This document shows, piece by piece, positions 1,987 through 51,494 of a DNA stretch of 51,494 nt; the first letter of the stretch is position 1, and every line of letters begins with the position of its first letter. The translations under genes were made by a program, and so were the position numbers. Location of the stretch: IMG/VR virus record IMGVR_UViG_3300045988_113183, one strand, 5' to 3'. The stretch comes from a virus. A model generated the notes under the pieces. The model worked only from the letters and a program-made list of their open reading frames with translations. It made no database searches and was not told the DNA's origin.

Positions 1987-2604
1987 ATGGACATTGTGAG
2001 TTTACGGCTTGATGAGCTGACCCCTTACGAAAACAACCCTCGACAGAATGATGCTGCCGTGGATGCCGTTGCCGCCTCTATCAAGCAGTTCGGCTTCAAA
2101 GTTCCCATCGTGGTGGATGCCAACAACGTCATCGTGGCCGGGCATACCCGTTTCAAAGCTGCTGCAAAGCTGGGCCTCGATACTGTGCCCTGTGTGGTAG
2201 CTGACGACCTGACCGAAGAGCAGGTCAAGGCATTCAGACTGGCAGATAACAAGGTCGGTGAGCTGGCCGAGTGGGATACCGAAAAGCTGTCTCAGGAGCT
2301 GGCCGGAATCCTCGATATTGACATGGAGCAGTTCGGCTTTAGCTCTGAGCTTGAAGAGCTGGGCGACGAGATGCTGGACAACCCCTATACCATGAAAACA
2401 AACATTCCGCAGTACGAGCCGACTGGAGAGTGTCCAAGCCTTGCAGATCTGTATGATACATCCAAAACGGATGAGTTGTTGGCTGAAATTGAAGAAGCTG
2501 ACCTGAATCCAGAAGAGAAGGGCTTTCTACTGCAAGCAGCCGGGCGACACACTGTTTTCAACTACCGCAAAATCGCAGAGTATTACGCCCATGCCTCCCC
2601 CTGA
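1987..2604 (+). CDS. ParB-like nuclease (ParB/Srx N-terminal) domain protein
   Basis: LDELTPYENNPRQN ... IVAGHTRFKAAAKLG ... FRLADNK is the typical ParBc motif set. The ORF stops at CCC-TGA (2599-2604). Confidence 0.8.
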   Translation: MDIVSLRLDELTPYENNPRQNDAAVDAVAASIKQFGFKVPIVVDANNVIVAGHTRFKAAAKLGLDTVPCVVADDLTEEQVKAFRLADNKVGELAEWDTEKLSQELAGILDIDMEQFGFSSELEELGDEMLDNPYTMKTNIPQYEPTGECPSLADLYDTSKTDELLAEIEEADLNPEEKGFLLQAAGRHTVFNYRKIAEYYAHASP

Positions 2605-2731
2605 GATGCAGGAGCTCATGGAAAAGTCTGCCCTTGTTATTATCGATGAGGGCGACGCTATCCGTAACGGTTTTGTATCTCTCTCCACTGTCGTTTCCGG
2701 CTTGATGGAAGAGGAGCAGAACGATGCGTGA
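2603..2731 (+). CDS. +1-frame continuation of the ParB-like ORF (EMQELMEKSALVIIDEGDAIRNGFVSLSTVVSGLMEEEQNDA), or a separate 42-46 codon ORF
   Basis: The frame is open from 2507. The sequence is protein-like. No RBS precedes its ATGs (2591, 2606). Its stop overlaps the GT start. Confidence 0.45.
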   Translation, partial: EMQELMEKSALVIIDEGDAIRNGFVSLSTVVSGLMEEEQNDA

Positions 2732-3605
2732 CGATTTTGCTGTGTTCATCCTGACCCACGGGAGAGCTGAGAAGGTCGTGACTGCTGAGACGCTCAAGCG
2801 CCAGAAGTATTCCGGCAAGGTCTATTTTATCATCGACAACGAAGATGATACCGCCGACCTGTACCGGGAGAAGTTTGGAGCCGAGAACGTCATCATGTTC
2901 GACAAGGCCGCTGCTGTGGCCCGTGCTGACACGATGGACAACATCTGTGAGCACCGTGCCATCCTGTATGCCCGCAACGAGAGCTTCCGTATCGCCCAAA
3001 AGCTGGGCCTGAAGTATTTTCTCATGCTGGACGATGATTACACAGACATCCTTGTGCGCTGGCCTGAGGGCAAAAAGCTCAAGGGAAAGAGCCTGACCGG
3101 CGAGAGACTGGACGGCCTGTTCGAGGCGATGCTGGATTTTCTCGATGCGTCTGGCGCTGCTATGGTAGCTCTGGCACAGGGCGGAGATATGATCGGCGGA
3201 GTTCACGGCGGCGGATATAAGATGGGCCTGAAGCGGAAGTGCATGAACAGCATGTTCTGCCGGGCTGATACCCCTGTCGAGTTCCGTGGAACTATGAACG
3301 AGGATGTCACGACCTACACCACCCTTGGCAGCCGCGGCGTTCTCTTTTTTACGTTTATGCGCTGTCAGGTGACGCAGATTCAGACGCAGAGCCTTTCCGG
3401 CGGTATGACTGAGGCGTACAAGGAGAGCGGGACTTACACCAAATCCTTCTACTCCGTCATGTCCATGCCCTCCTGCATCAAGGTGGGAGAGATGGGCGGA
3501 AGCCACCGCCGGATTCACCACTCTATCAATTGGGACTGCTGCGTCCCGAAGATTCTGAACGAAAAATACAGAAAGGAGCGAGAAGATGCAGAACATCGCA
3601 AGTGA
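2724..3605 (+). CDS. GT-A-like glycosyltransferase (DxD-type), possibly of the phage DNA-base glycosyltransferase (TET-associated GT-like) kind
   Basis: N-terminal beta-strand followed by HGR (FAVFILTHGR). YFIIDNEDD and FLMLDDDY acidic motifs. Start overlaps the upstream ORF and stop overlaps the radical-SAM start. Confidence 0.5.
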   Translation: MRDDFAVFILTHGRAEKVVTAETLKRQKYSGKVYFIIDNEDDTADLYREKFGAENVIMFDKAAAVARADTMDNICEHRAILYARNESFRIAQKLGLKYFLMLDDDYTDILVRWPEGKKLKGKSLTGERLDGLFEAMLDFLDASGAAMVALAQGGDMIGGVHGGGYKMGLKRKCMNSMFCRADTPVEFRGTMNEDVTTYTTLGSRGVLFFTFMRCQVTQIQTQSLSGGMTEAYKESGTYTKSFYSVMSMPSCIKVGEMGGSHRRIHHSINWDCCVPKILNEKYRKEREDAEHRK

Positions 3606-4545
3606 CAAGATGATGGCCCACATTGACCGCATTGCAGGAAACCGACTGCCTATCACGGCAGATATCTTCCTGAACAACTTCTGCAACAACCGCTGCCCCT
3701 ACTGCACATACGGACGTTGGGAGCTTGACCCTGACGCTCATGCCATGGCGTACGAGGATTTTGTACGCTACGCCATGAAGCTGCTGGAGCTGGGAGTCGA
3801 GGGCTTCATTCTCACCGGCGGCGGAGAGCCTACTATCTCCCCTGATTTTGACCGTATTACCGAGTGGCTGGATAAGAACGAGCTGCACTATGGAATCAAC
3901 ACCAACTTCAACGCTATTCGCTTTCCGAAGCCCGATTACCTGAAAGTCAGCCTTGACGGATGGGATGAGGACAGCTATGAGCAGCGCCGGGGCGTGAGAT
4001 GCTACAACAAGGTTGTGGACAATATCCGTGACTATGCTTTCTGGAAGCGCAAGCACAGCCCCAAAACGTCTTTGGGCATTCAGTGTGTTGTTTCCTCTGC
4101 CGATGATGTAAAGCGATTCTACGGGGCGAATAAGAGCCTCCCCGTGGATTATATCTCGTTCCGGCCCATTGAAAGCACCGCCGGGAAAGCCTATGATACT
4201 GGAACCGCCAAGGCACAGGCTCGTGAAGCTGTGGCTGCCATTAAAGCTCTGGCCGCTGCTGACCACCGTGTCGTCCTCAATTTCAAGTGGGAGATGCTGG
4301 ACTGGCAGGAGCCGACCTGTACCGCCTCGTGGGCACAGATTGCCCTGAACGAAAAGGGCGAGGTCATGTACTGCTGCCACAAGCCGTATCAGATCGTGGG
4401 CCACATCCTCGACCCTGATATTTTGGAGAAGAAAAACCGGGCCACCACCGACATGAGCGGGTGCGATATCCCCTGCCGGATGACTGGCCCAAACGCTGCT
4501 GTCCGTGAGCTGATGACCGAACGGAAAGACGCTTGCTTCATCTGA
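3586..4545 (+). CDS. Radical SAM enzyme with C-terminal Cys-rich (auxiliary-cluster-like) region
   Basis: CNNRCPYC (CX3CX2C) motif, ILTGGGEPT motif, and C-terminal CCHKP and GCDIPC cysteines. AGGAG RBS. Confidence 0.8.
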   Translation: MQNIASDKMMAHIDRIAGNRLPITADIFLNNFCNNRCPYCTYGRWELDPDAHAMAYEDFVRYAMKLLELGVEGFILTGGGEPTISPDFDRITEWLDKNELHYGINTNFNAIRFPKPDYLKVSLDGWDEDSYEQRRGVRCYNKVVDNIRDYAFWKRKHSPKTSLGIQCVVSSADDVKRFYGANKSLPVDYISFRPIESTAGKAYDTGTAKAQAREAVAAIKALAAADHRVVLNFKWEMLDWQEPTCTASWAQIALNEKGEVMYCCHKPYQIVGHILDPDILEKKNRATTDMSGCDIPCRMTGPNAAVRELMTERKDACFI

Positions 4546-21434: not shown

Positions 21435-21809
21435 ATGGAGGACAACTACACCCTTAAAATTGACCCCGACACCCGTGACCTGTGCTTCGACGATGACGGC
21501 ATCATGGAGACGGTGGCTGGGGACACTACGTCGGCCCAAAGCGTCCGCCTGACCCTCTGTGCATGGAAAGGCGAGTTTCCCCTTGTCCCGGCCCACGGCA
21601 CTGACTATTCCCGCATCATGGGCAAGAAGCTGGGCGACCTCGAAGATGACGAAATCCCCGAAGTCATCCGGGAAGCTGTTTTTCAGGAGGGAGCTGTCTC
21701 TGAGGTAAACAGCGTGGAGTACACCATTGATGGCCGCAGCTTGTCCGTAGAGTTCAATGGAAAGTTGACCGACGGAAATAATATCACATCGGAGGTGAGC
21801 ATCGAGTGA
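21435..21809 (+). CDS. Baseplate wedge protein (XkdS/DUF2634, gp25/W-like)
   Basis: 124 aa after a TAAGGAGG RBS. Lies upstream of the baseplate J gene. Confidence 0.6.
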   Translation: MEDNYTLKIDPDTRDLCFDDDGIMETVAGDTTSAQSVRLTLCAWKGEFPLVPAHGTDYSRIMGKKLGDLEDDEIPEVIREAVFQEGAVSEVNSVEYTIDGRSLSVEFNGKLTDGNNITSEVSIE

Positions 21810-22984
21810 ACACCCAAGACTGGGGCGTTACTGAACAGGGCTTTCACTGCCCTACCTACGTCGAGCTGCTGAACGCTCTGGAGTATAAAGCCAGAGAGCT
21901 TTTCGGCTCGAAAGCAAATATGACTGTCAGAAGCCCTCTCGGCTTGTTCCTGCGAATTTTCGCATGGATGCTGAGCATCATCTTCAGCCTCGCTGAAGAT
22001 GTCTACAACAGCCGCTTCATGGACACCGCGGTGGGTGCAAGCCTATATAACCTCGGTAAAGCCATTGGCCTGAGATTGCTTTCTGCACAGAAAGCATCCG
22101 GCTATGTCCAGTTTACTGGAAACCCCGGCACCATTATCCCGACCGGCTTCCTTGTGAAAACTGTTTCCAACCTCCAGTATGCCGTTCTGGAAGGCGGCCA
22201 GATTGGAGATGAGGGCACGGCCCTGCTCCCGGTTCAGGCCGTTTCTGCCGGCCCTGACTACAACGTTTCGGCTGGAGAAATTAAAGAGATTACGAACCCG
22301 CTTGACGGAGTTTCGTCCTGTACGAATCTGGCTGCTGTGGACGGCGGAAGAACCCGCGAGACCGATGAAGAGTATCGAGATCGCTATGAGCAGTCTGTGG
22401 ATTATGCAGGCGGTGTGAATGCTGATGCCATCGCTGGCGAAATCCTGCAGAATGTTGAATCCGTATACTCCGCTATCTGCTACGAGAATTGCGAAGATGT
22501 AACGGACTCGCTCGGACTGCCCCCGCACAGCATTGAGGCCATTGTTTATGGTGGTCTTGACCAAGATGTTGCAAAGGCGGTTTACAGGCGCAAAGGTGCC
22601 GGAATCCAGACCTACGGAAACAAAACTGTTTCTGTGGTCGGGGCCAACGGTCAGACCTTCAACATTAAGTTTTCCCGCCCGACGGCTGTGCCGGTCTATA
22701 TCAAAATCACAGACCTTACAACCTCTTCCGTCTTCCCTGAAGATGGACGAGACCAAATCAAGTCTGCCCTGATTGAGTACATTGGCGGCGATGTCACAGG
22801 CGGCCTGAAGATTGGCACGAATGTCCTGTACATGGCTCTGCCTGGCGTTATTCTTAGCGTTCCCGGCGTGACCGATTTCCACCTGAGTATCAGCCCTGAC
22901 GGCTCTTCTTACAGTCAAGAGAACATCGTCGTCGGTACAAGAGAAAAGGCTGTCACCGATGCCGGAAAGGTGGCGATTTCGTGA
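21806..22984 (+). CDS. Baseplate J-like protein (XkdT)
   Basis: 392 aa. Conserved order and typical J-family sequence features. Confidence 0.7.
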   Translation: MNTQDWGVTEQGFHCPTYVELLNALEYKARELFGSKANMTVRSPLGLFLRIFAWMLSIIFSLAEDVYNSRFMDTAVGASLYNLGKAIGLRLLSAQKASGYVQFTGNPGTIIPTGFLVKTVSNLQYAVLEGGQIGDEGTALLPVQAVSAGPDYNVSAGEIKEITNPLDGVSSCTNLAAVDGGRTRETDEEYRDRYEQSVDYAGGVNADAIAGEILQNVESVYSAICYENCEDVTDSLGLPPHSIEAIVYGGLDQDVAKAVYRRKGAGIQTYGNKTVSVVGANGQTFNIKFSRPTAVPVYIKITDLTTSSVFPEDGRDQIKSALIEYIGGDVTGGLKIGTNVLYMALPGVILSVPGVTDFHLSISPDGSSYSQENIVVGTREKAVTDAGKVAIS

Positions 22985-23675: not shown

Positions 23676-24971
23676 ATGTCCAAATACCAAGACGGCAATT
23701 ACGGCACTCTGGCTGGCATTGCCCTTATCGGCAAAGTGCTGGCCGGGCGCTGCACCCTGAAGTACACCAAGGCTACTGTCGGCAAGGGCAGTATCCCTGA
23801 CGGTAAGACACCCAAAACCATGGACGGCTCTGCTGAGTATGTTATGGATGTTCCCATCTCTGGCATTACCAACCCCGTGGACGGTGAATGTCAGGTATCC
23901 GTGCAAATCAGCAGCGCCAGCGTCACCACCGGCTTTTATTGCACCAATGTTGTGCTGTATGCCCAAGACCCTGATTCGGGAGAAATCCCCTTCACTTACC
24001 TTGTGATGGAGAACGAACCTGAATGGATTCATCCTTCGTCCTCTTCTGTCGGCAAACTGGCCGCCATTGACCTTATCTCGGCGGTTGGTGACGTAGACCA
24101 TGTGGAGGCAACCATCGACGAAGATACCATTGCCACTGTGGCCGTGGTAAATCAGGCTGTGAATGACCTGAAGAACAAAACCCTTCCGCTTGCTGGTGGC
24201 ACATTGACTGGCCCTCTGATTCTGGCAGACGGCTACAATGCCTATGGTGTTGCCAGCAATGCTGCTGCGCACAATGCTATGCCGCCCCGCTTTAAGAATC
24301 TCGGCACAGCGGCAACCTCTGACATCCACGCGGCTATCAAGGCTGGCACATTCGACGATATCTTTGTCGGCGATTATTTTATGGTGGGTGACAACCCGAT
24401 TTACATCGGTGCCCTCGACTGGTACCTGAACTGCGGCGACACGAGCTGCACCGAGCATCATGCCCTGCTCGTACCCGGTAACAATCTGTACACCTACCAC
24501 ATGAATGCCACCAATACGACTGAGGGCGGTTACGTTGGCAGTGATATGTATAAGAACGGTCTGACGCAGGCAAAGCAGTTTTTCAGCGACGCGTTCGGGG
24601 CGGCCCATATTTTGTCCCATCGGCAGTATCTGGTGAACGCTGTTTCTGGCGGCAAGCCTACTGGAACGGACTGGTTCGACAGCACGGTGGAGCTGATGAA
24701 TGAAAACATGGTTTATGGCGGGCGGCAATTCTCGCCCATGCCGGACGGCGCAACTGAACCGTGGAGCACCTGCAGGAACTACACCATCGATAAGGGCCAA
24801 ATTCCTTTGTTCCAGTATGCCCCGTGGCTGATTTGCAACCGTAACTGGTACTGGCTGCGAGACGTGGTCTCGGCGGCCAGTTTTGCCAATGTCGGCGACG
24901 GCGGCTATGCGGACTGCGGCGGCGCTTCCGACGTCGCTGGCGTTCGGCCTGTCGCCGGTCTGATCGGTTAA
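23676..24971 (+). CDS. Tail fibre protein; C-terminal lectin-fold-like variable domain is DGR target 1
   Basis: Tail-collar-like N-terminus. The C-terminus (WYWLRDVVSAASFANVGDGGYADCGGASDVAGVRPVAGLIG) contains VR1. Confidence 0.85.
   Translation: MSKYQDGNYGTLAGIALIGKVLAGRCTLKYTKATVGKGSIPDGKTPKTMDGSAEYVMDVPISGITNPVDGECQVSVQISSASVTTGFYCTNVVLYAQDPDSGEIPFTYLVMENEPEWIHPSSSSVGKLAAIDLISAVGDVDHVEATIDEDTIATVAVVNQAVNDLKNKTLPLAGGTLTGPLILADGYNAYGVASNAAAHNAMPPRFKNLGTAATSDIHAAIKAGTFDDIFVGDYFMVGDNPIYIGALDWYLNCGDTSCTEHHALLVPGNNLYTYHMNATNTTEGGYVGSDMYKNGLTQAKQFFSDAFGAAHILSHRQYLVNAVSGGKPTGTDWFDSTVELMNENMVYGGRQFSPMPDGATEPWSTCRNYTIDKGQIPLFQYAPWLICNRNWYWLRDVVSAASFANVGDGGYADCGGASDVAGVRPVAGLIG
24863..24961 (+). repeat. 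DGR variable repeat VR1
   Basis: 99-nt gapless alignment to TR. All 16 differences are at TR adenines. Confidence 0.9.
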
Positions 24972-24977
24972 TCGAAC

Positions 24978-25002
24978 ATCCTGCGGGCCTGTACCGCAGG
25001 AT
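24978..25002 (+). promoter_or_regulatory. Hairpin 17 nt downstream of VR1 (candidate DGR target-recognition element)
   Basis: 9-bp stem ATCCTGCGG/CCGCAGGAT with loop GCCTGTA. Confidence 0.6.
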
Positions 25003-25026
25003 TGAGATAGAAAGAAGGTGAAAGCG

Positions 25027-25575
25027 ATGTCCATCCCGAAGCATGAACGTTCCCCTTCCAGACTGGAAGCGCAGCATCTTGCCCGGAAAATCAGCTTGGA
25101 AATAACGTCCGAGCTTGCGAGGACGTTCGGCTACAGCAAGGCAAAATTTGAGAAGCACGTCGAAACTATGACGAAATACCTACCTCCCGGCCCGGACAGG
25201 GAATCTGCTGCACAGCAGATTCGGGAGCAGGAACAGGGATTCAACTTGTGGCTGATTGAGCAGGAACGCCGGAGAATGCTTGACTTATCACGCGAAATCC
25301 CACTCCATCTTCGTGCGGCAAATTCCATTTGGCCCAGTTGCCAGATGGAGCTTGATGCACGAAGGCTGGAGCTTGACCGCGCCGTTGCTGCCTGCTGGAA
25401 ATTGCAGGACGAACTCCAGTATATTGCTGAAGCTCTTCCGGCTGATTTCAACAAATATACCGGCCTTGCCTTGGAAATTGACAAGCTCGTTTCGTATATT
25501 AAAAATTTACGAAAATCCGACAGCAAGAGATTCAAGGCTGCTTCCGAAAACAAATCCGCAAAAAGTACGAAATAA
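25027..25575 (+). CDS. avd: Avd-like accessory variability determinant (helical bundle protein)
   Basis: Basic, helical ORF between the target gene and TR, which is the canonical Avd position. At 183 aa it is longer than a typical Avd. Confidence 0.6.
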   Translation: MSIPKHERSPSRLEAQHLARKISLEITSELARTFGYSKAKFEKHVETMTKYLPPGPDRESAAQQIREQEQGFNLWLIEQERRRMLDLSREIPLHLRAANSIWPSCQMELDARRLELDRAVAACWKLQDELQYIAEALPADFNKYTGLALEIDKLVSYIKNLRKSDSKRFKAASENKSAKSTK

Positions 25576-25598
25576 TAAACAATTGGGCATCCTTTGTT

Positions 25599-25697
25599 CG
25601 TGGTCTCGACGGCCAATTTTGCCAATGTCAACGACAACGGCAATGCGAACTACAACAACGCTTCCAACGTCAATGGCGTTCGGCCTGTCGCCGGTCT
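25599..25697 (+). repeat. DGR template repeat (TR)
   Basis: Non-coding copy containing 23 adenines, mostly in AAC/AAT triplets. In the VR frame it reads VVSTANFANVNDNGNANYNNASNVNGVRPVAGL. Confidence 0.9.
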
Positions 25698-25860
25698 CTG
25701 ATTTCGCAACTGTACATAAAAGGATTGGTTCCGAGTACAGCTCTGCGAAAGGAAAGGCTGTCCATTCATGGAGATTCCATGATAAACGCCCCTTGAGGGC
25801 ATCAACGGCGATGTTCCCGGTTACGACCGATGGAGCTATCACGCTGTTTTTTCTTTTGCT

Positions 25861-27093
25861 ATGACAAAATTGACCGATGCAAATGTGCTGTATGATGCAG
25901 GATTTAAGGCAATGAAGCCTTCTTACTACAAATACGGCACTCAACTGTATGAAATGAACCATCTTCTCGAAACGGCAAGGCTTCAGAAAGCTTTCCTTGA
26001 GGGGAGCTACGAGCCGCAACCCGGCGTTAAATTTGAGATTAAGGAAAGAGGGCACGAAAGGTATATCACCAGCACTGAGACCGCTGACAAGGCGGTTTCT
26101 CATATCATCTGTGATGAGTATCATACGCCCCTGCTGGGCCGGTATCTCCAGTATGATAACTCGGCCAGCCAGAAAGGCAAAGGCGTTGCTTTTCACCGTC
26201 ACCGATTTAAGGTTCACCTGCGGCAGTATTATGAGCGTGAAGGAACGAACGAGGGCTTTATTTTATTCTCGGACTTCAGCGGGTATTATGCCAACATTCT
26301 GCATGAGGTAACGCTTTCCCGGCTGGAAAAGTATCTCACGAAAGAGATACCCGACCGTGTGGAGCTTGCTCAGGTGTTGGATGTCCTGCGTAAAACCTTC
26401 AAGAGCTATGAGCTGGACGTATCTCGGTTCTCGGATTCTGAAATCGAGCAGATGTACCGAGAAAAAATCAGCTCCACTTTTAATGTCGGCGTACCGTCCT
26501 CCGTCCTGACCGGCGAAAAGATGCTGCGCAAGGGAGTTGATATCGGCAATCAGATCTCTCAGAACGTTGGCATCTTCCTGCCCGTCCCTCTGGATAACTA
26601 TGTCAAAATCGTCTGTGGTATCAAGGGATACGCCCGATATTCAGATGACTTTTATGCCATTGCCCGGACAAAGGAAGAGCTACACGAGGTTATGGATGGG
26701 GTACGCCGGGAAGCCGCTGCACTGGGCCTTATCATCAACGAAAAGAAAACCCGTATCTGCAAACTTGGCAGCCAGTACCGCCACCTGCAGATGCTCTATT
26801 CCCTGAAGCCTGACGGCGAGATTACCTGCAAAATTAACCCAAAGTCTATCACTCGTGAGCGCCGGAAACTGAAAGCATACAAAAGGCTGCTGGATGCTGG
26901 CCGGATGGAGTATGCCGAAATCGAGAACAATTTTAAGTCGTGGATTTGCACCTACTATCGGTTCATGTCCCTGCTGCAAATCCAAAACATGATTGCTCTG
27001 TACAAGGAGCTATTCGGAAAGGATATCACATGGAAAAAGTCACGAGGACATGGTCGGTTACGCTGGCTGATGGCACAGCCATTGAAAACCTGA
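25861..27093 (+). CDS. DGR reverse transcriptase
   Basis: DIGNQISQ (the DGR-type IGxxxSQ motif) and GYARYSDDF (YxDD box). Lies ~160 nt downstream of TR. Confidence 0.9.
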   Translation: MTKLTDANVLYDAGFKAMKPSYYKYGTQLYEMNHLLETARLQKAFLEGSYEPQPGVKFEIKERGHERYITSTETADKAVSHIICDEYHTPLLGRYLQYDNSASQKGKGVAFHRHRFKVHLRQYYEREGTNEGFILFSDFSGYYANILHEVTLSRLEKYLTKEIPDRVELAQVLDVLRKTFKSYELDVSRFSDSEIEQMYREKISSTFNVGVPSSVLTGEKMLRKGVDIGNQISQNVGIFLPVPLDNYVKIVCGIKGYARYSDDFYAIARTKEELHEVMDGVRREAAALGLIINEKKTRICKLGSQYRHLQMLYSLKPDGEITCKINPKSITRERRKLKAYKRLLDAGRMEYAEIENNFKSWICTYYRFMSLLQIQNMIALYKELFGKDITWKKSRGHGRLRWLMAQPLKT

Positions 27094-27392
27094 CCCTGAA
27101 TGCCGGAAGCAACAACTTCCATTCTCCCACTGAAATTACCTCTGAGATGTTCGAGGGGAAGCTTGCCGAGGTTCATATCGCCTCCAGTGATGGTGATATG
27201 AGCAGCTGCGGCTATCCTTCCGTTTTGAGCAATGCAGAGCTTGTACAAATCACCCCCGCATCCGAAACACAGGACGGCCAGTGGCACTTCATTCTGCGGG
27301 AAGTTCCTGAGGATGAGCTTTTCAAGGCCCGCACTCAGGCCCAGCTTGACTTCCTTGCCCTGAGCGCCGATATCAATTTGGAGGATATGTAA
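27030..27392 (+). CDS. Hypothetical protein (XkdW position)
   Basis: ATG 27030 overlaps the last 64 nt of the RT ORF. Precedes the XkdX-like gene. Confidence 0.55.
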   Translation: MEKVTRTWSVTLADGTAIENLTLNAGSNNFHSPTEITSEMFEGKLAEVHIASSDGDMSSCGYPSVLSNAELVQITPASETQDGQWHFILREVPEDELFKARTQAQLDFLALSADINLEDM

Positions 27393-27393
27393 C

Positions 27394-27543
27394 ATGATTG
27401 AGCACAGCCCGAAGTTCGGTGATGTGAAGCAGCACTACGATTTTCACCTGTGGAAGAAATCCACTGTAAAGCTGGCCGTCAAAAGAAAATGGATTACGGC
27501 GGACGAGTACGAGGAGATCACTGGTGAAAAGTATGCAGCCTGA
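27394..27543 (+). CDS. XkdX-family small protein
   Basis: 49 aa ending KRKWITADEYEEITGEKY, which is XkdX-like. Confidence 0.65.
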   Translation: MIEHSPKFGDVKQHYDFHLWKKSTVKLAVKRKWITADEYEEITGEKYAA

Positions 27544-27697
27544 AAGCTGGCCAGATCTGTGCGAAGGTCTGCTGTCCCGGCTTGAAGATGCCGGTGAAGA
27601 TACCTCGGAAGAGCGCAGCAAGTTTGCTGTGCTGTCTGCTGGATGCAGCGTCCGTGGCTGCCCTTTGATGCAGAAAGAACAGGAGATGAGTTTTTGA
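27533..27697 (+). CDS. Hypothetical 54-aa protein
   Basis: ORF not in the provided track. Overlaps its neighbours on both sides. Confidence 0.35.
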   Translation: MQPESWPDLCEGLLSRLEDAGEDTSEERSKFAVLSAGCSVRGCPLMQKEQEMSF

Positions 27698-28353
27698 GTA
27701 TTATCACGTTTCAGCGGGGCGATAAAACCGCCCTCACCAAAAATTTTTCCAGGTACGAGTTCCAGTGTCCCTGCGGCTGCACCTCGCAGATGACCGAGCA
27801 GGAGCTCGCGGACAAGCTCCAGAGCATCCGGGACAAGCTGGGGAAGAAAATCAAAATCACCTCCGGCTACCGCTGCATCAAGCATAACTCCAGCAAGTCT
27901 GTTAGAGGCAGCAAGCAGAGCCGCCATCTGTACGGTATTGCTGCCGACTGGAGAACTGACGACCGCTCTGTAAACCCCGTCGCCCTTGGAATCTTGGCCC
28001 AGAAGGCCGGTTTCGGGGGCGTTGGTGTGTACTGGCACAGCAAGGGTGCTTTCGTCCACACCGACACCCGCAATGGCAAATCCACATGGCTCTGCACCAC
28101 GCCCGGACAGTACCCCAGCACCAGCTACAATGCCTTTATCCTGCCGACCATCAAACAAGGCTGTACTGGAGCTGCACCCCGCAGCGCCACCATCATGCTG
28201 CAGAAGCTGCTGAAGGTGACCGCCGACGGGAACTTCGGCCCGGCCACCACCAAAGCCTTGATGGAGGCCCAACGCAAGCACGGCCTCGTCCCTGATGGCA
28301 TTTGCGGCCCGAAGAGCTGGACGGTCATTTCTGGCGCTGACAAATATCTGTGA
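27694..28353 (+). CDS. Endolysin: M15-type peptidase plus peptidoglycan-binding (PG_binding_1-like) domain
   Basis: SGYRC ... HN ... SRHLYGIAAD ... VHTD metal-site pattern. C-terminal LQKLL ... DGNFGP ... T ... AL repeat. TTG 27694 follows an AGGAG RBS; ATG 27643 is the alternative start. Confidence 0.8.
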   Translation: MSIITFQRGDKTALTKNFSRYEFQCPCGCTSQMTEQELADKLQSIRDKLGKKIKITSGYRCIKHNSSKSVRGSKQSRHLYGIAADWRTDDRSVNPVALGILAQKAGFGGVGVYWHSKGAFVHTDTRNGKSTWLCTTPGQYPSTSYNAFILPTIKQGCTGAAPRSATIMLQKLLKVTADGNFGPATTKALMEAQRKHGLVPDGICGPKSWTVISGADKYL

Positions 28354-29074: not shown

Positions 29075-29156
29075 CAGAAAATCCCCCTGCTGATACCGAA
29101 GCCCAACGTTCAACGCCGGGTCCGCGTAGGTACAGCGGGGGGATTTTTCTGTTTTT
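29075..29156 (+). terminator. Long inverted repeat plus T-run after the lysis module
   Basis: CAGAAAATCCCCCTGCTG pairs with CAGCGGGGGGATTTTTCTG (~17 bp) around a ~40-nt loop, followed by TTTTT. Confidence 0.4.
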
Positions 29157-35232: not shown

Positions 35233-35285
35233 AAATAAGCGTCCCTGCGTTAGGGACCACTTGAATTTTGAAGGGAGATTTTTAC

Positions 35286-35894
35286 ATGAACGGTATGTTT
35301 TTTCGCGGTGAGGTTTATTATGTTCTGCCTACTGGCAAGGAGGCTGGATGCGAGCAGCACGGTGGCCGCCCGGCTGTCATCGTGAGCAATAACCAGAACA
35401 ACAAGAACTCCTCCACTCTGGAGATCGTTTACCTGACAACTCAGGAAAAGAAGCCTCTTCCCACTCATGTTCATATCAATGCTGCTGGGAAGCTGAAAGA
35501 ATCCACGGCCATCTGCGAGCAGGTGCTCACTGTGGACAAAACCCGGATGGATGAGTATATTGGGGTGCTGTGTGACAAGGAGATGCGGGACATCGAGTTT
35601 GGCCTGATGGTCAGTCTTGGTCTCGACAACTACCTCTCCAAGCCGAAAGAAGTTCCCGGAAGCGACATCACTATTGGCTCTGTGGCCGTTTCCATTCCAT
35701 CGCCGGTTCCCTCTGCCAATAGTTTTGCTGAAGTTGCTGCATCGAAAGTGGCCGAGAATACCCCCGTTCAGGCTCCAGCCTCTGCACCTTCTGTTCCCGG
35801 CAGAAGCTTTGAAAAAGAGTTCATCTCAGCTTGCGCACAGCGTGATGTTTACCGGGAGCTGTGCATGAAGATGATCGAGCAGCGGAGGGCGTGA
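35286..35894 (+). CDS. MazF/PemK-like toxin domain with ~95-aa C-terminal extension
   Basis: GEVYYV ... EQHGGRPAVIVSNN ... LTTQEKKPLPTHV ... EQVLTVDKTR is the PemK-type motif pattern. The extension is P/S/A-rich and ends in a helical tail. Confidence 0.7.
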   Translation: MNGMFFRGEVYYVLPTGKEAGCEQHGGRPAVIVSNNQNNKNSSTLEIVYLTTQEKKPLPTHVHINAAGKLKESTAICEQVLTVDKTRMDEYIGVLCDKEMRDIEFGLMVSLGLDNYLSKPKEVPGSDITIGSVAVSIPSPVPSANSFAEVAASKVAENTPVQAPASAPSVPGRSFEKEFISACAQRDVYRELCMKMIEQRRA

Positions 35895-36335: not shown

Positions 36336-36974
36336 ATGAAAGTAAGAAGAACTGAAAAAATCAAGACCAACACCTTCCGTGAGGGCGACATCATCAAGTT
36401 TAAGCTGGCCGATGGCGAGAAGGTCAAAATGCTGGCTGTCAAGAGTGAGCTGGACGGTATGGTTTTCTGCTCTGTGGACTGTCTGAAAGCCGAGTACTGC
36501 ATGAACCCTACCGGCACGAACGCCGGAGGCTGGGCTGATTCTGAGCTTCGGAAGAAGCTGAACAGTGAGATTCTGGAGCGCTTCCCGAAGAAAATCAAAA
36601 AGCTGCTGGTTCCGTTCGAGAACGGCGACCTGCTCCGCATCCCTACTGAGAAGGAAATCTTCGACAGGAATCCCTACGGCGAGGACGAGCCTGAAGCTGT
36701 GGAGCAGTGGAGGGCGATGAAGCAGCGCAAGAACCGCATCGCCTCGCAGGGGCTGAACGGAGGCTGGGAGTGGTATTGGCTCCAGAATCCGGCTGGCAAC
36801 TCGCCGGCCTTTTTCGCCCTTGTCAACGCCCTCGGCTGTGCGGGCTACGGCGACGCTTCCGACGTCTGTGGCGTTCGGCCTGTCGCCAAAATCAAAAATC
36901 AGACATCTGCACCTGCCTGTCAGGTGCAGGAAGATGACAGCCCTTTCGGGGAAATCGAGGATGCTGAACAGTGA
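36336..36974 (+). CDS. Second DGR target protein (lectin-fold-like variable C-terminal region, DUF6273-like), non-structural
   Basis: GGWADSELRKKLN ... WEWYWLQNPAG ... FFALVNALGCAGYGDASDVCGVRPVA contains VR2. No signal peptide seen. Confidence 0.8.
   Translation: MKVRRTEKIKTNTFREGDIIKFKLADGEKVKMLAVKSELDGMVFCSVDCLKAEYCMNPTGTNAGGWADSELRKKLNSEILERFPKKIKKLLVPFENGDLLRIPTEKEIFDRNPYGEDEPEAVEQWRAMKQRKNRIASQGLNGGWEWYWLQNPAGNSPAFFALVNALGCAGYGDASDVCGVRPVAKIKNQTSAPACQVQEDDSPFGEIEDAEQ
36800..36887 (+). repeat. DGR variable repeat VR2 (remote)
   Basis: 88-nt gapless alignment to TR 25605-25692. 18 of the 19 differences are at TR adenines. Confidence 0.85.
36907..36929 (+). promoter_or_regulatory. Hairpin 20 nt downstream of VR2 (candidate DGR target-recognition element)
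   Basis: 8-bp stem CTGCACCT/AGGTGCAG with loop GCCTGTC, nearly the same loop as the VR1 hairpin. Confidence 0.6.
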
Positions 36975-51259: not shown

Positions 51260-51487
51260 ATGAGCAACAAAATCAATCTGACCGATGCGAAGCTTCTGGC
51301 CGACCTGCAGAAGCTCATCGAGGAGAAAAAGAAAGCCGCCAACCCTTCCGAGGATTGCAAAGAGATCGTTGGCACACTCACCCCCATCTTTGGGAAGCTG
51401 ATGCCCATGATGCAGAAAAAGCAACAGGCCGAGGTGGATACCTTGACCCGCGTTAGAAACCGCCTGGCAGAGCTGCTGGACGAGTAA
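51260..51487 (+). CDS. Hypothetical coiled-coil protein (3' end duplicated at 1-134)
   Basis: AGGAG RBS upstream of ATG 51260. Confidence 0.6.
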   Translation: MSNKINLTDAKLLADLQKLIEEKKKAANPSEDCKEIVGTLTPIFGKLMPMMQKKQQAEVDTLTRVRNRLAELLDE

Positions 51488-51494
51488 ACCGCCC
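51354..51494. repeat. Terminal direct repeat, identical to 1-141
   Basis: 141/141 identity with the window start. Confidence 0.95.

Follow-up and report, generated by a model that had tools for sequence, protein, structure and literature searches.

A diversity-generating retroelement with one template and two variable repeats in a circularly assembled phage genome, most likely from a Faecalibacterium host

In this work we analysed a stretch of viral DNA of 51,494 nucleotides (nt), the IMG/VR virus record IMGVR_UViG_3300045988_113183, which as a whole is called the window below, and the diversity-generating retroelement (DGR) that lies between its tail-fibre and lysis genes. The cassette begins with a tail-fibre gene encoding 431 amino acids (23676-24971, + strand), the 3' end of which holds a variable repeat (VR1, 24863-24961, +). 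It continues with a hairpin (24978-25002, +), a gene for a basic accessory protein (25027-25575, +), the 99-nt template repeat (TR, 25599-25697, +), a spacer of 163 nt (25698-25860, +) and a gene for a reverse transcriptase (RT) of 410 amino acids (25861-27093, +). A second target gene lies at a distance, in the early region of the genome (36336-36974, +); near its end is a second variable repeat (VR2, 36800-36887, +) that is again followed by a hairpin (36907-36929, +). We conclude with high confidence that this is a functional DGR of a temperate, contractile-tailed phage with a circular assembly of about 51.4 kb, the host of which is most likely Faecalibacterium. The conclusion is carried by the parts themselves, by the adenine specificity of the differences between repeats, by the kinship of the RT with Brt, the RT of phage BPP-1, by an invariant TR facing variable VRs among relatives, and by covariation in the hairpins and in the spacer.

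TR and VR1 are the top and longest direct repeat of the region; they align over 99 nt without a gap at 84% identity, and homology is lost abruptly at both borders. All 16 differences are on TR adenines (14 A to G, one A to T and one A to C), and the 76 positions that are not adenine in the TR agree without exception. Given that 23 of the 99 TR positions are adenines, 16 of 16 differences would fall on adenines by chance with a probability of 2.2e-13. These coordinates, the gapless alignment and the restriction of all differences to adenines had been proposed in an earlier, sequence-only reading of this DNA; all three withstood automated alignment, which that reading had named as a check, and its translations of the two repeats in the VR frame, VVSTANFANVNDNGNANYNNASNVNGVRPVAGL for the TR and VVSAASFANVGDGGYADCGGASDVAGVRPVAGL for VR1, match ours exactly. 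It had, however, described VR1 as the last 99 nt of the tail-fibre region, which is not literally so: 10 nt of the open reading frame (ORF) remain after VR1, 7 nt of which precede the TAA stop codon (24969-24971). As is characteristic of DGRs, the variable repeat is in frame at the 3' end of its target gene and faces a TR rich in AAY codons: the TR adenines are distributed over 13 codons, ten AAY plus ACG, GAC and TAC. No stop codon can be reached by changing TR adenines, and the capacity of the system is about 3.7e13 protein variants. The 3' end of the TR is GC-rich and contains no adenine. The excess of A-to-G changes in VR1 (14 of 16) might be taken for a bias of this RT, but it is not a property of the system, because sister VR1s derived from an identical TR have many C and T substitutions, and because the changes in VR2 are more evenly spread (8 G, 6 T and 4 C).

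VR2 aligns without gaps over 88 nt with TR positions 7-94 and is located 11.1 kb downstream of the TR. It differs from the TR at 18 adenines and at one position that is not an adenine, so that differences confined to TR adenines, the hallmark of DGRs, account for 16 of 16 changes in VR1 and for 18 of 19 in VR2. Scanning both strands of the window with the non-adenine positions of the TR returned VR1, the TR and VR2 only, and no third variable repeat. The sequence-only reading had delimited a complete DGR at 24863-27093; all hallmarks are indeed present within these limits, but the element extends beyond them, to this second target 11 kb downstream. The gene that carries VR2 encodes a small DUF6273 protein of 212 amino acids (PF19789, 7e-7, above the cut-off), the start of which was set by homologues that begin with MKVRRTEK; it has 928 homologues, and PF19789 is found in nearly all of the 120 listed. 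The other target is identified as a tail fibre by a match of its residues 11-163 to phrog_7037 (tail fiber, 3e-33). Its C-terminal 160 or so amino acids are homologous to the small target well beyond the variable repeat (residues 274-429 against 54-186 of the small protein, BLASTP E 1e-7), and therefore the variable segment is carried by the same domain in both proteins. In nd4 and nd12, two phages that also have two targets, DUF6273 has been described as C-type-lectin-like (PMC10743442). A profile search of the PDB with the small target and its comparison with Mtd by hhalign revealed no similarity. Diversification of the tail-fibre tip presumably serves receptor binding. By eye, no signal peptide is evident in the small target. 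The VR2 gene is preceded, at a distance of about 440 nt, by a gene (35268-35894) for a PemK/MazF-like toxin domain (Pfam 1e-20) that is extended by about 95 amino acids at its C-terminus; no antitoxin was identified.

The RT (RVT_1, 4e-9; phrog_1423, 6e-45) starts 163 nt after the end of the TR. It has the two motifs pointed out in the sequence-only reading, IGNQISQ at residues 228-234 (26542-26562) and YSDD at residues 260-263 (26638-26649), and thereby combines the [I/L/V]GxxxSQ and YxDD motifs of DGR-type RTs with a position adjoining a TR. Residue Q234 of the SQ motif is invariant across 25 homologues. A search of the PDB with the RT as a single sequence gave nothing, while a profile built from the 25 homologues has 8ub7 as its top match (E 3e-10). 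Sequence alignments show that this structure is the BPP-1 Brt; a literature search on the PDB code gave no result. In a direct comparison by hhalign, the RT family profile aligns with BPP-1 Brt (NC_005357) over 269 columns with a probability of 97.7% and an E-value of 2e-12, the RT of the window having an insertion of about 50 residues before IGNQISQ. This kinship is judged by profile matches. The public gene call begins the RT at the second ATG, 25912 (393 amino acids); however, homologues conserve the 17 additional N-terminal residues that result from a start at 25861. At its other end, the RT gene shares 64 nt with the gene that follows, which starts at 27030.

The accessory gene occupies, between target and TR, the position of avd in BPP-1. 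From its ATG (25027) it encodes 182 amino acids, or 185 if the GTG at 25018 is used, and not 183 as first given; nor is the ORF unusually long, as had been thought, since about 180 amino acids is the norm of its family, in which nearly all full-length homologues have about 170-185 amino acids. The protein is basic, like Avd (isoelectric point 9.3, compared with 9.55 for BPP-1 Avd). An AlphaFold2 model (predicted local distance difference test score, pLDDT, 84.7) has helices at residues 14-31, 38-48, 56-99, 106-136 and 141-181, and Foldseek searches of the PDB and of a viral structure library returned matches of probability 1.0, with target TM-scores of 0.74-0.83, to 2rld and 2gsc, which are four-helix bundles of the PF05635 type (the 23S rRNA IVS family), and to a phage protein labelled 'Avd-like protein'; no other match combined a probability of 1.0 with such a TM-score. 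The family is large (at least 832 representative clusters at 50% identity in an exhaustive profile search), and its members adjoin DGR-type RT genes both at 52% identity, in Acutalibacter phage Fontainebleau, and at 24% identity, where the member lies just upstream of an RVT_1 gene. Based on position, charge and predicted fold, the accessory protein is probably a very divergent Avd with an added helix.

Between TR and RT, the spacer forms a structured RNA that is conserved. RNAalifold applied to the spacers of eight lineages predicts 41 pairs, 13 of which show compensatory changes, and the sequence itself is strongly conserved; the spacer matches no Rfam family at the gathering threshold. By analogy with the Sp region of BPP-1, it may be the part of the DGR RNA that is needed for complementary DNA (cDNA) priming. 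A sequence resembling a sigma-70 promoter (TTGACA-17-AAAAAT, 25478-25506, +), recognized by consensus only, lies some 90 nt before the TR, in the 3' part of the accessory gene; it could give rise to a TR-RT transcript of its own.

Each VR is followed at a short distance by a hairpin with a 9-bp stem, ATCCTGCGG-GCCTGTA-CCGCAGGAT starting 16 nt after VR1 and CTGCACCTG-CCTGT-CAGGTGCAG starting 19 nt after VR2. As DNA, they fold with energies of -11.3 kcal/mol (z -4.2) and -10.5 kcal/mol (z -3.6), respectively, whereas folding downstream of the TR is not above background. The two stems are GC-rich and unrelated in sequence, and the loops share CCTGT. Relatives show compensatory stem changes, for example CCCACGG/CCGTGGG at the VR1 hairpin and CCG..CGG at the VR2 hairpin. 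More generally, a hairpin is present at the same offset after the VRs in about 100 related loci, with stems that differ from one locus to another, compensatory changes at all nine pairs and a loop consensus of C(C/T)TGT or TTTAT; this set was picked by a stem search, and the percentage of paired positions is thus partly a matter of construction. In BPP-1, homing requires a hairpin or cruciform close to the VR for target recognition, with a 4-nt GRNA loop of which both the size and the sequence matter (PMC3240598). The window shares with known DGRs a GC-rich hairpin after the VR and none at the TR, with a loop that departs from the GRNA consensus, and by analogy the two hairpins would act as the hairpin or cruciform structures by which a DGR recognizes its targets.

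Comparison with related sequences indicates that this DGR family is active. Related RTs are encoded by 22 viral contigs, and a scan recovered the layout VR-accessory-TR-RT in 17 of these, with 196 differences between VR and TR at adenines and 3 elsewhere. In a sister clade (RT 70% identical), the TR is near-constant and the VRs change between loci. Closer still are six other contigs with an identical accessory protein: their TR is 100% identical to that of the window and their flanks about 96% identical, and VR1 is unlike that of the window in three of the four that contain it, with 16-19 differences at adenine sites. Similarly, the small target is carried by 80 viral loci; VR2 of the sister clade matches the TR of its own clade, and across 23 loci there are 233 adenine-site against 15 non-adenine differences, with constant flanks. 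Two contigs are common to the RT search and to the small-target search, and the two-target design is therefore conserved. An invariant TR combined with VRs that vary among close relatives is the signature of mutagenic homing; activity is read here from contigs and applies to the family as a whole. A DGR of the sister clade (RT 70% identical) is found on an 8.9-kb contig in a metagenome-assembled genome (MAG) of Barnesiella intestinihominis (Bacteroidota), a placement that probably reflects a binning error and not a true host.

By analogy with BPP-1, we propose the following model. The region comprising the accessory gene, TR, spacer and RT gene would be transcribed, and the RT, assisted by the basic helical accessory protein and the spacer RNA, would copy the TR RNA into cDNA with misincorporation opposite template adenines. 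The cDNA would then replace the homologous 3' ends, VR1 in the tail-fibre gene just upstream and VR2 in the small DUF6273 gene. A recipient VR would be marked by the adenine-free, GC-rich 3' end of the repeat together with the 9-bp hairpin with its C(C/T)TGT loop 16-19 nt further on, and the directionality of the process would result from the TR being devoid of such a hairpin.

Several rival explanations of the individual parts were weighed, together with the observations that speak against a functional DGR. The RT could in principle be that of a group II intron, a retron or a defence system, next to a repeat pair that is an ordinary duplication. NCBIfam, which has no DGR RT model, gives matches to these classes only (group II maturase TIGR04416, 45 bits with a cut-off of 300; Drt2, 29 bits; a retron RT model, 18 bits with a cut-off of 235), and the C-terminal third of the protein aligns with the thumb regions of group II enzymes. 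All these matches are far under their cut-offs, however, and in the PDB profile search the group II maturases (9e-8, over the thumb regions in the C-terminal third only) and the retron RTs (0.006 or higher) come below Brt, which matches best both by structure and by profile, over the fingers and the palm. The window yields no group II intron or retron RNA with Rfam at the gathering threshold; it thus holds neither the association of an above-threshold maturase with intron RNA domains that defines a group II intron, nor that of a retron-type RT with adjacent msr/msd RNA that defines a retron. The SQ motif is also present, and adenine-confined differences cannot be produced by ordinary duplication, which refutes the combination of a group II or retron RT with a duplicated repeat. 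Clustering of the RT with group II or retron RTs, which the sequence-only reading had listed as a possible refutation, was not observed, as Brt ranks first both in the PDB profile search and by hhalign, and we give this explanation practically no credence. More serious is the proposal that the accessory protein is not an Avd homologue at all, and is instead an unrelated helical protein that fills the role of Avd or plays another one. No sequence similarity with Avd is detectable: the protein has no match in Pfam, NCBIfam or the PDB by sequence, PF05635 is found in none of 37 family members and in one of 46 diverse members only at E 0.015, profile searches of the PDB with the family do not match Avd, and hhalign against BPP-1 Avd gives a probability of 0.1% with a shallow and then with a diverse profile. 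By sequence, whether judged from PF05635 or from BPP-1 Avd, the protein is thus not a member of the Avd family; in addition, it is about 50 amino acids longer than Avd, with an extra helix. On the other side stand the position between target and TR, the equal basic charge, and the fact that two independent structure libraries gave as matches of probability 1.0 the PF05635-type bundles and the phage Avd-like protein, although the E-values of these matches are weak (0.025-0.5) and not significant. The term Avd-like used in the sequence-only reading is thus based on position, charge and predicted fold, every sequence test being negative; the comparison with four-helix-bundle Avd structures that it called for gave the weak matches just mentioned. 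On balance we favour a divergent Avd, and consider a non-homologous protein as the less likely alternative, albeit one that keeps appreciable weight.

The hairpin downstream of VR1 could be a mere transcription terminator of the tail-fibre gene with no role in homing, as it lies 6 nt after the stop codon of that gene and before the accessory gene. This is quite improbable: the VR1 hairpin is not followed by a run of T residues, a terminator scan makes no call there, and the VR2 hairpin, whose loop is the same, is part of the coding region of its gene, where it encodes the conserved peptide APACQV. Further arguments against a terminator are the recurrence of the hairpin at a constant distance from the VR in about 100 loci, where the loop is conserved and the stems are unrelated, and the need for such a hairpin in BPP-1 homing (PMC3240598). 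Other findings count against the model of a functional DGR. The hairpin loop has 5 nt here and is pyrimidine-rich, compared with the 4-nt GRNA consensus that in BPP-1 is sensitive to size and sequence (PMC3240598). VR2 has its non-adenine mismatch, and its homology with the TR is shorter at both ends than that of VR1. The AlphaFold2 model of the small target, which might have defined the fold of the target domain, has a pLDDT of 41.6. Finally, one contig from another sample is 100% identical to the window over 5.4 kb, VR1 included. The last observation is what would be expected of a fossil, that is, of a formerly active DGR of which the present copy no longer homes and in which the VR differences are historical. 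The single non-adenine mismatch in VR2 is in keeping with this idea, as is the report that Lelie and CP11, a phage and a candidate prophage with two DUF6273 targets, show no read-level variation in culture (PMC11792537). However, the RT ORF is intact and keeps its catalytic motifs, both hairpins and the spacer structure are preserved, the TR is perfectly conserved in spite of a flank divergence of about 4%, and VR1 differs at 16-19 adenine sites between strains that are otherwise 96% identical. We consequently hold the fossil hypothesis to be improbable, and retain the interpretation of the locus as a functional DGR.

The prototype BPP-1 (mtd-avd-TR-brt) has the same gene order, which confirms the earlier view that the order target-accessory-TR-RT is canonical, and its DGR is situated at the same site, between tail-fibre and lysis genes. 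The two systems also share homologous RTs, a VR at the 3' end of the gene for a receptor-binding protein, an adenine-free GC-rich 3' end of the TR, and a GC-rich hairpin after the VR (PMC3240598). They differ in that the RT of the window is 82 amino acids longer, with its insertion of about 50 amino acids between palm motifs and a longer C-terminus; in that the accessory protein has 182 amino acids against 128 for Avd, to which it is dissimilar in sequence; in the loop, a 5-nt C(C/T)TGT here and a 4-nt GRNA there (PMC3240598); and in the presence here of two targets, with a DUF6273 domain for which no similarity to Mtd was detected. An abundance of DGRs is a known feature of Faecalibacterium phages. 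In phage Lelie and candidate prophage CP11, a single TR is paired with two VRs, which lie at the C-termini of two DUF6273 proteins, one large and one small, and both VRs vary at adenine sites at the population level (PMC11792537). The likely host genus, the use of one TR for two VRs, the pair of large and small DUF6273 targets and the adenine-site variation of both VRs in populations are common to these elements and to the window; in contrast, the RT of Lelie is just 26% identical, and the ORF upstream of it (orf29) has no similarity to the accessory family described here. With regard to the cassette, the closest isolated phage is Acutalibacter phage Fontainebleau (ON453893), the RT of which is 54% identical. 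Upstream of this RT is an ORF of 184 amino acids that is a member of the accessory family (hhalign E 2e-84, 52% identity). The arrangement is as here, target-accessory-TR-RT and then holin and lysin, and the VR is followed by a similar hairpin, with the loop CTTGC. Fontainebleau differs in its host genus and in the remainder of the phage, and its accessory protein is annotated only as 'hypothetical protein'. More distant are nd4 and nd12 (tentaclins; PMC10743442) and Roseburia phage Shimadzu, whose RTs are 25-30% identical to that of the window. In target 1 of nd4 and nd12 the VR is near the 5' end and immunoglobulin domains are present, whereas both VRs are C-terminal here, and the second target of the window differs from theirs in being 11 kb away, in the early region.

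DGRs of Faecalibacterium phages, including those with two DUF6273 targets, have thus already been published, and no new principle is involved here. Only three points go slightly beyond published descriptions, namely an accessory family without annotation, the hairpin with its pentaloop and the second target in the early region. It is conceivable, though we regard it as doubtful, that this lineage is a distinct DGR subtype, in which the accessory family of about 180 amino acids has co-evolved with another target-recognition signal, the pyrimidine-rich C(C/T)TGT or TTTAT pentaloop in place of the 4-nt GRNA loop, and the small target is intracellular. In that joint proposal, equally doubtful in our opinion, the small target would be a DGR-diversified binding protein acting inside the cell, for instance in counter-defence or superinfection exclusion, and not a receptor-binding protein of the virion. 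Whatever the status of the lineage, the window provides a complete and apparently active DGR in a circularly assembled phage genome from an important gut commensal genus, with its two VRs, two hairpins, TR, structured spacer RNA, RT and accessory protein mapped to the base. The pentaloop, which is unlike the BPP-1 consensus, offers a natural test of what reads the loop. On the practical side, the accessory family is invisible to hidden Markov models of Avd, with the consequence that pipelines will label these abundant gut-phage DGRs as Avd-less.

The way in which the cassette came to its present site can be addressed by comparison with phages that have related baseplate modules. GC content falls from about 55% to 48-50% across the cassette. 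In phages with a baseplate J protein 57-67% identical to that of the window, a related baseplate protein and a tail fibre related in its N-terminus, the same slot is occupied by another DGR lineage, with an RT only 28% identical and a different fibre C-terminus, and no relative devoid of a DGR was found among phages with related baseplate modules. Simple insertion of the DGR is therefore not supported. The location between tail-fibre and lysis genes given in the sequence-only reading is correct, but the insertion that it assumed is not shown by these data; small genes also separate the RT from the endolysin. Gene content in these relatives suggests that a module made of the fibre tip and the DGR was exchanged, and not simply inserted.

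The window corresponds to the complete contig k141_133543 of ENA assembly ERZ27272187. An exact direct repeat of 141 nt is present at the window termini (1-141 and 51354-51494), its length being that of the assembler k-mer, and the assembly is therefore circular, with a length of about 51.35 kb. A public record of equal length apparently begins at another coordinate. Structural genes encode terminase, portal, protease, major head protein, tail sheath, tape measure and baseplate proteins; the gene for baseplate J (21806-22984) is followed by that of another baseplate protein and then by the tail-fibre gene. After the DGR cassette, between the RT and the endolysin genes, come an unnamed small gene (27030-27392), an XkdX-like gene (27394-27543) and a further ORF of 57 amino acids (27524-27697); then follow an M15 endolysin gene (27643-28353) and an SPP1-type holin gene. 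Downstream of the holin are a tyrosine integrase gene on the minus strand, a repressor module, and early and replication genes. Megablast of all three thirds of the window revealed no close DNA relative among deposited phage genomes, and gave just tRNA matches and short patches of similarity to Faecalibacterium phages Roos and Pioen. These patches, the sole DNA shared with deposited phages, point to Faecalibacterium as the most likely host, as does the 83% identity of the RT with a copy in a 208-kb contig of a Faecalibacterium MAG. Between the holin and integrase genes, Rfam identifies a DUF3800-VIII RNA (29081-29144, +; 60 bits, gathering score 40). In the first part of the window, a tRNA-Trp gene (1497-1572) is present, and the interval 1987-4545 holds three adjacent genes, for a ParB-like protein, a TET-associated glycosyltransferase (PF20691, 6e-44) and a radical SAM protein, which may form a phage DNA hypermodification cluster.

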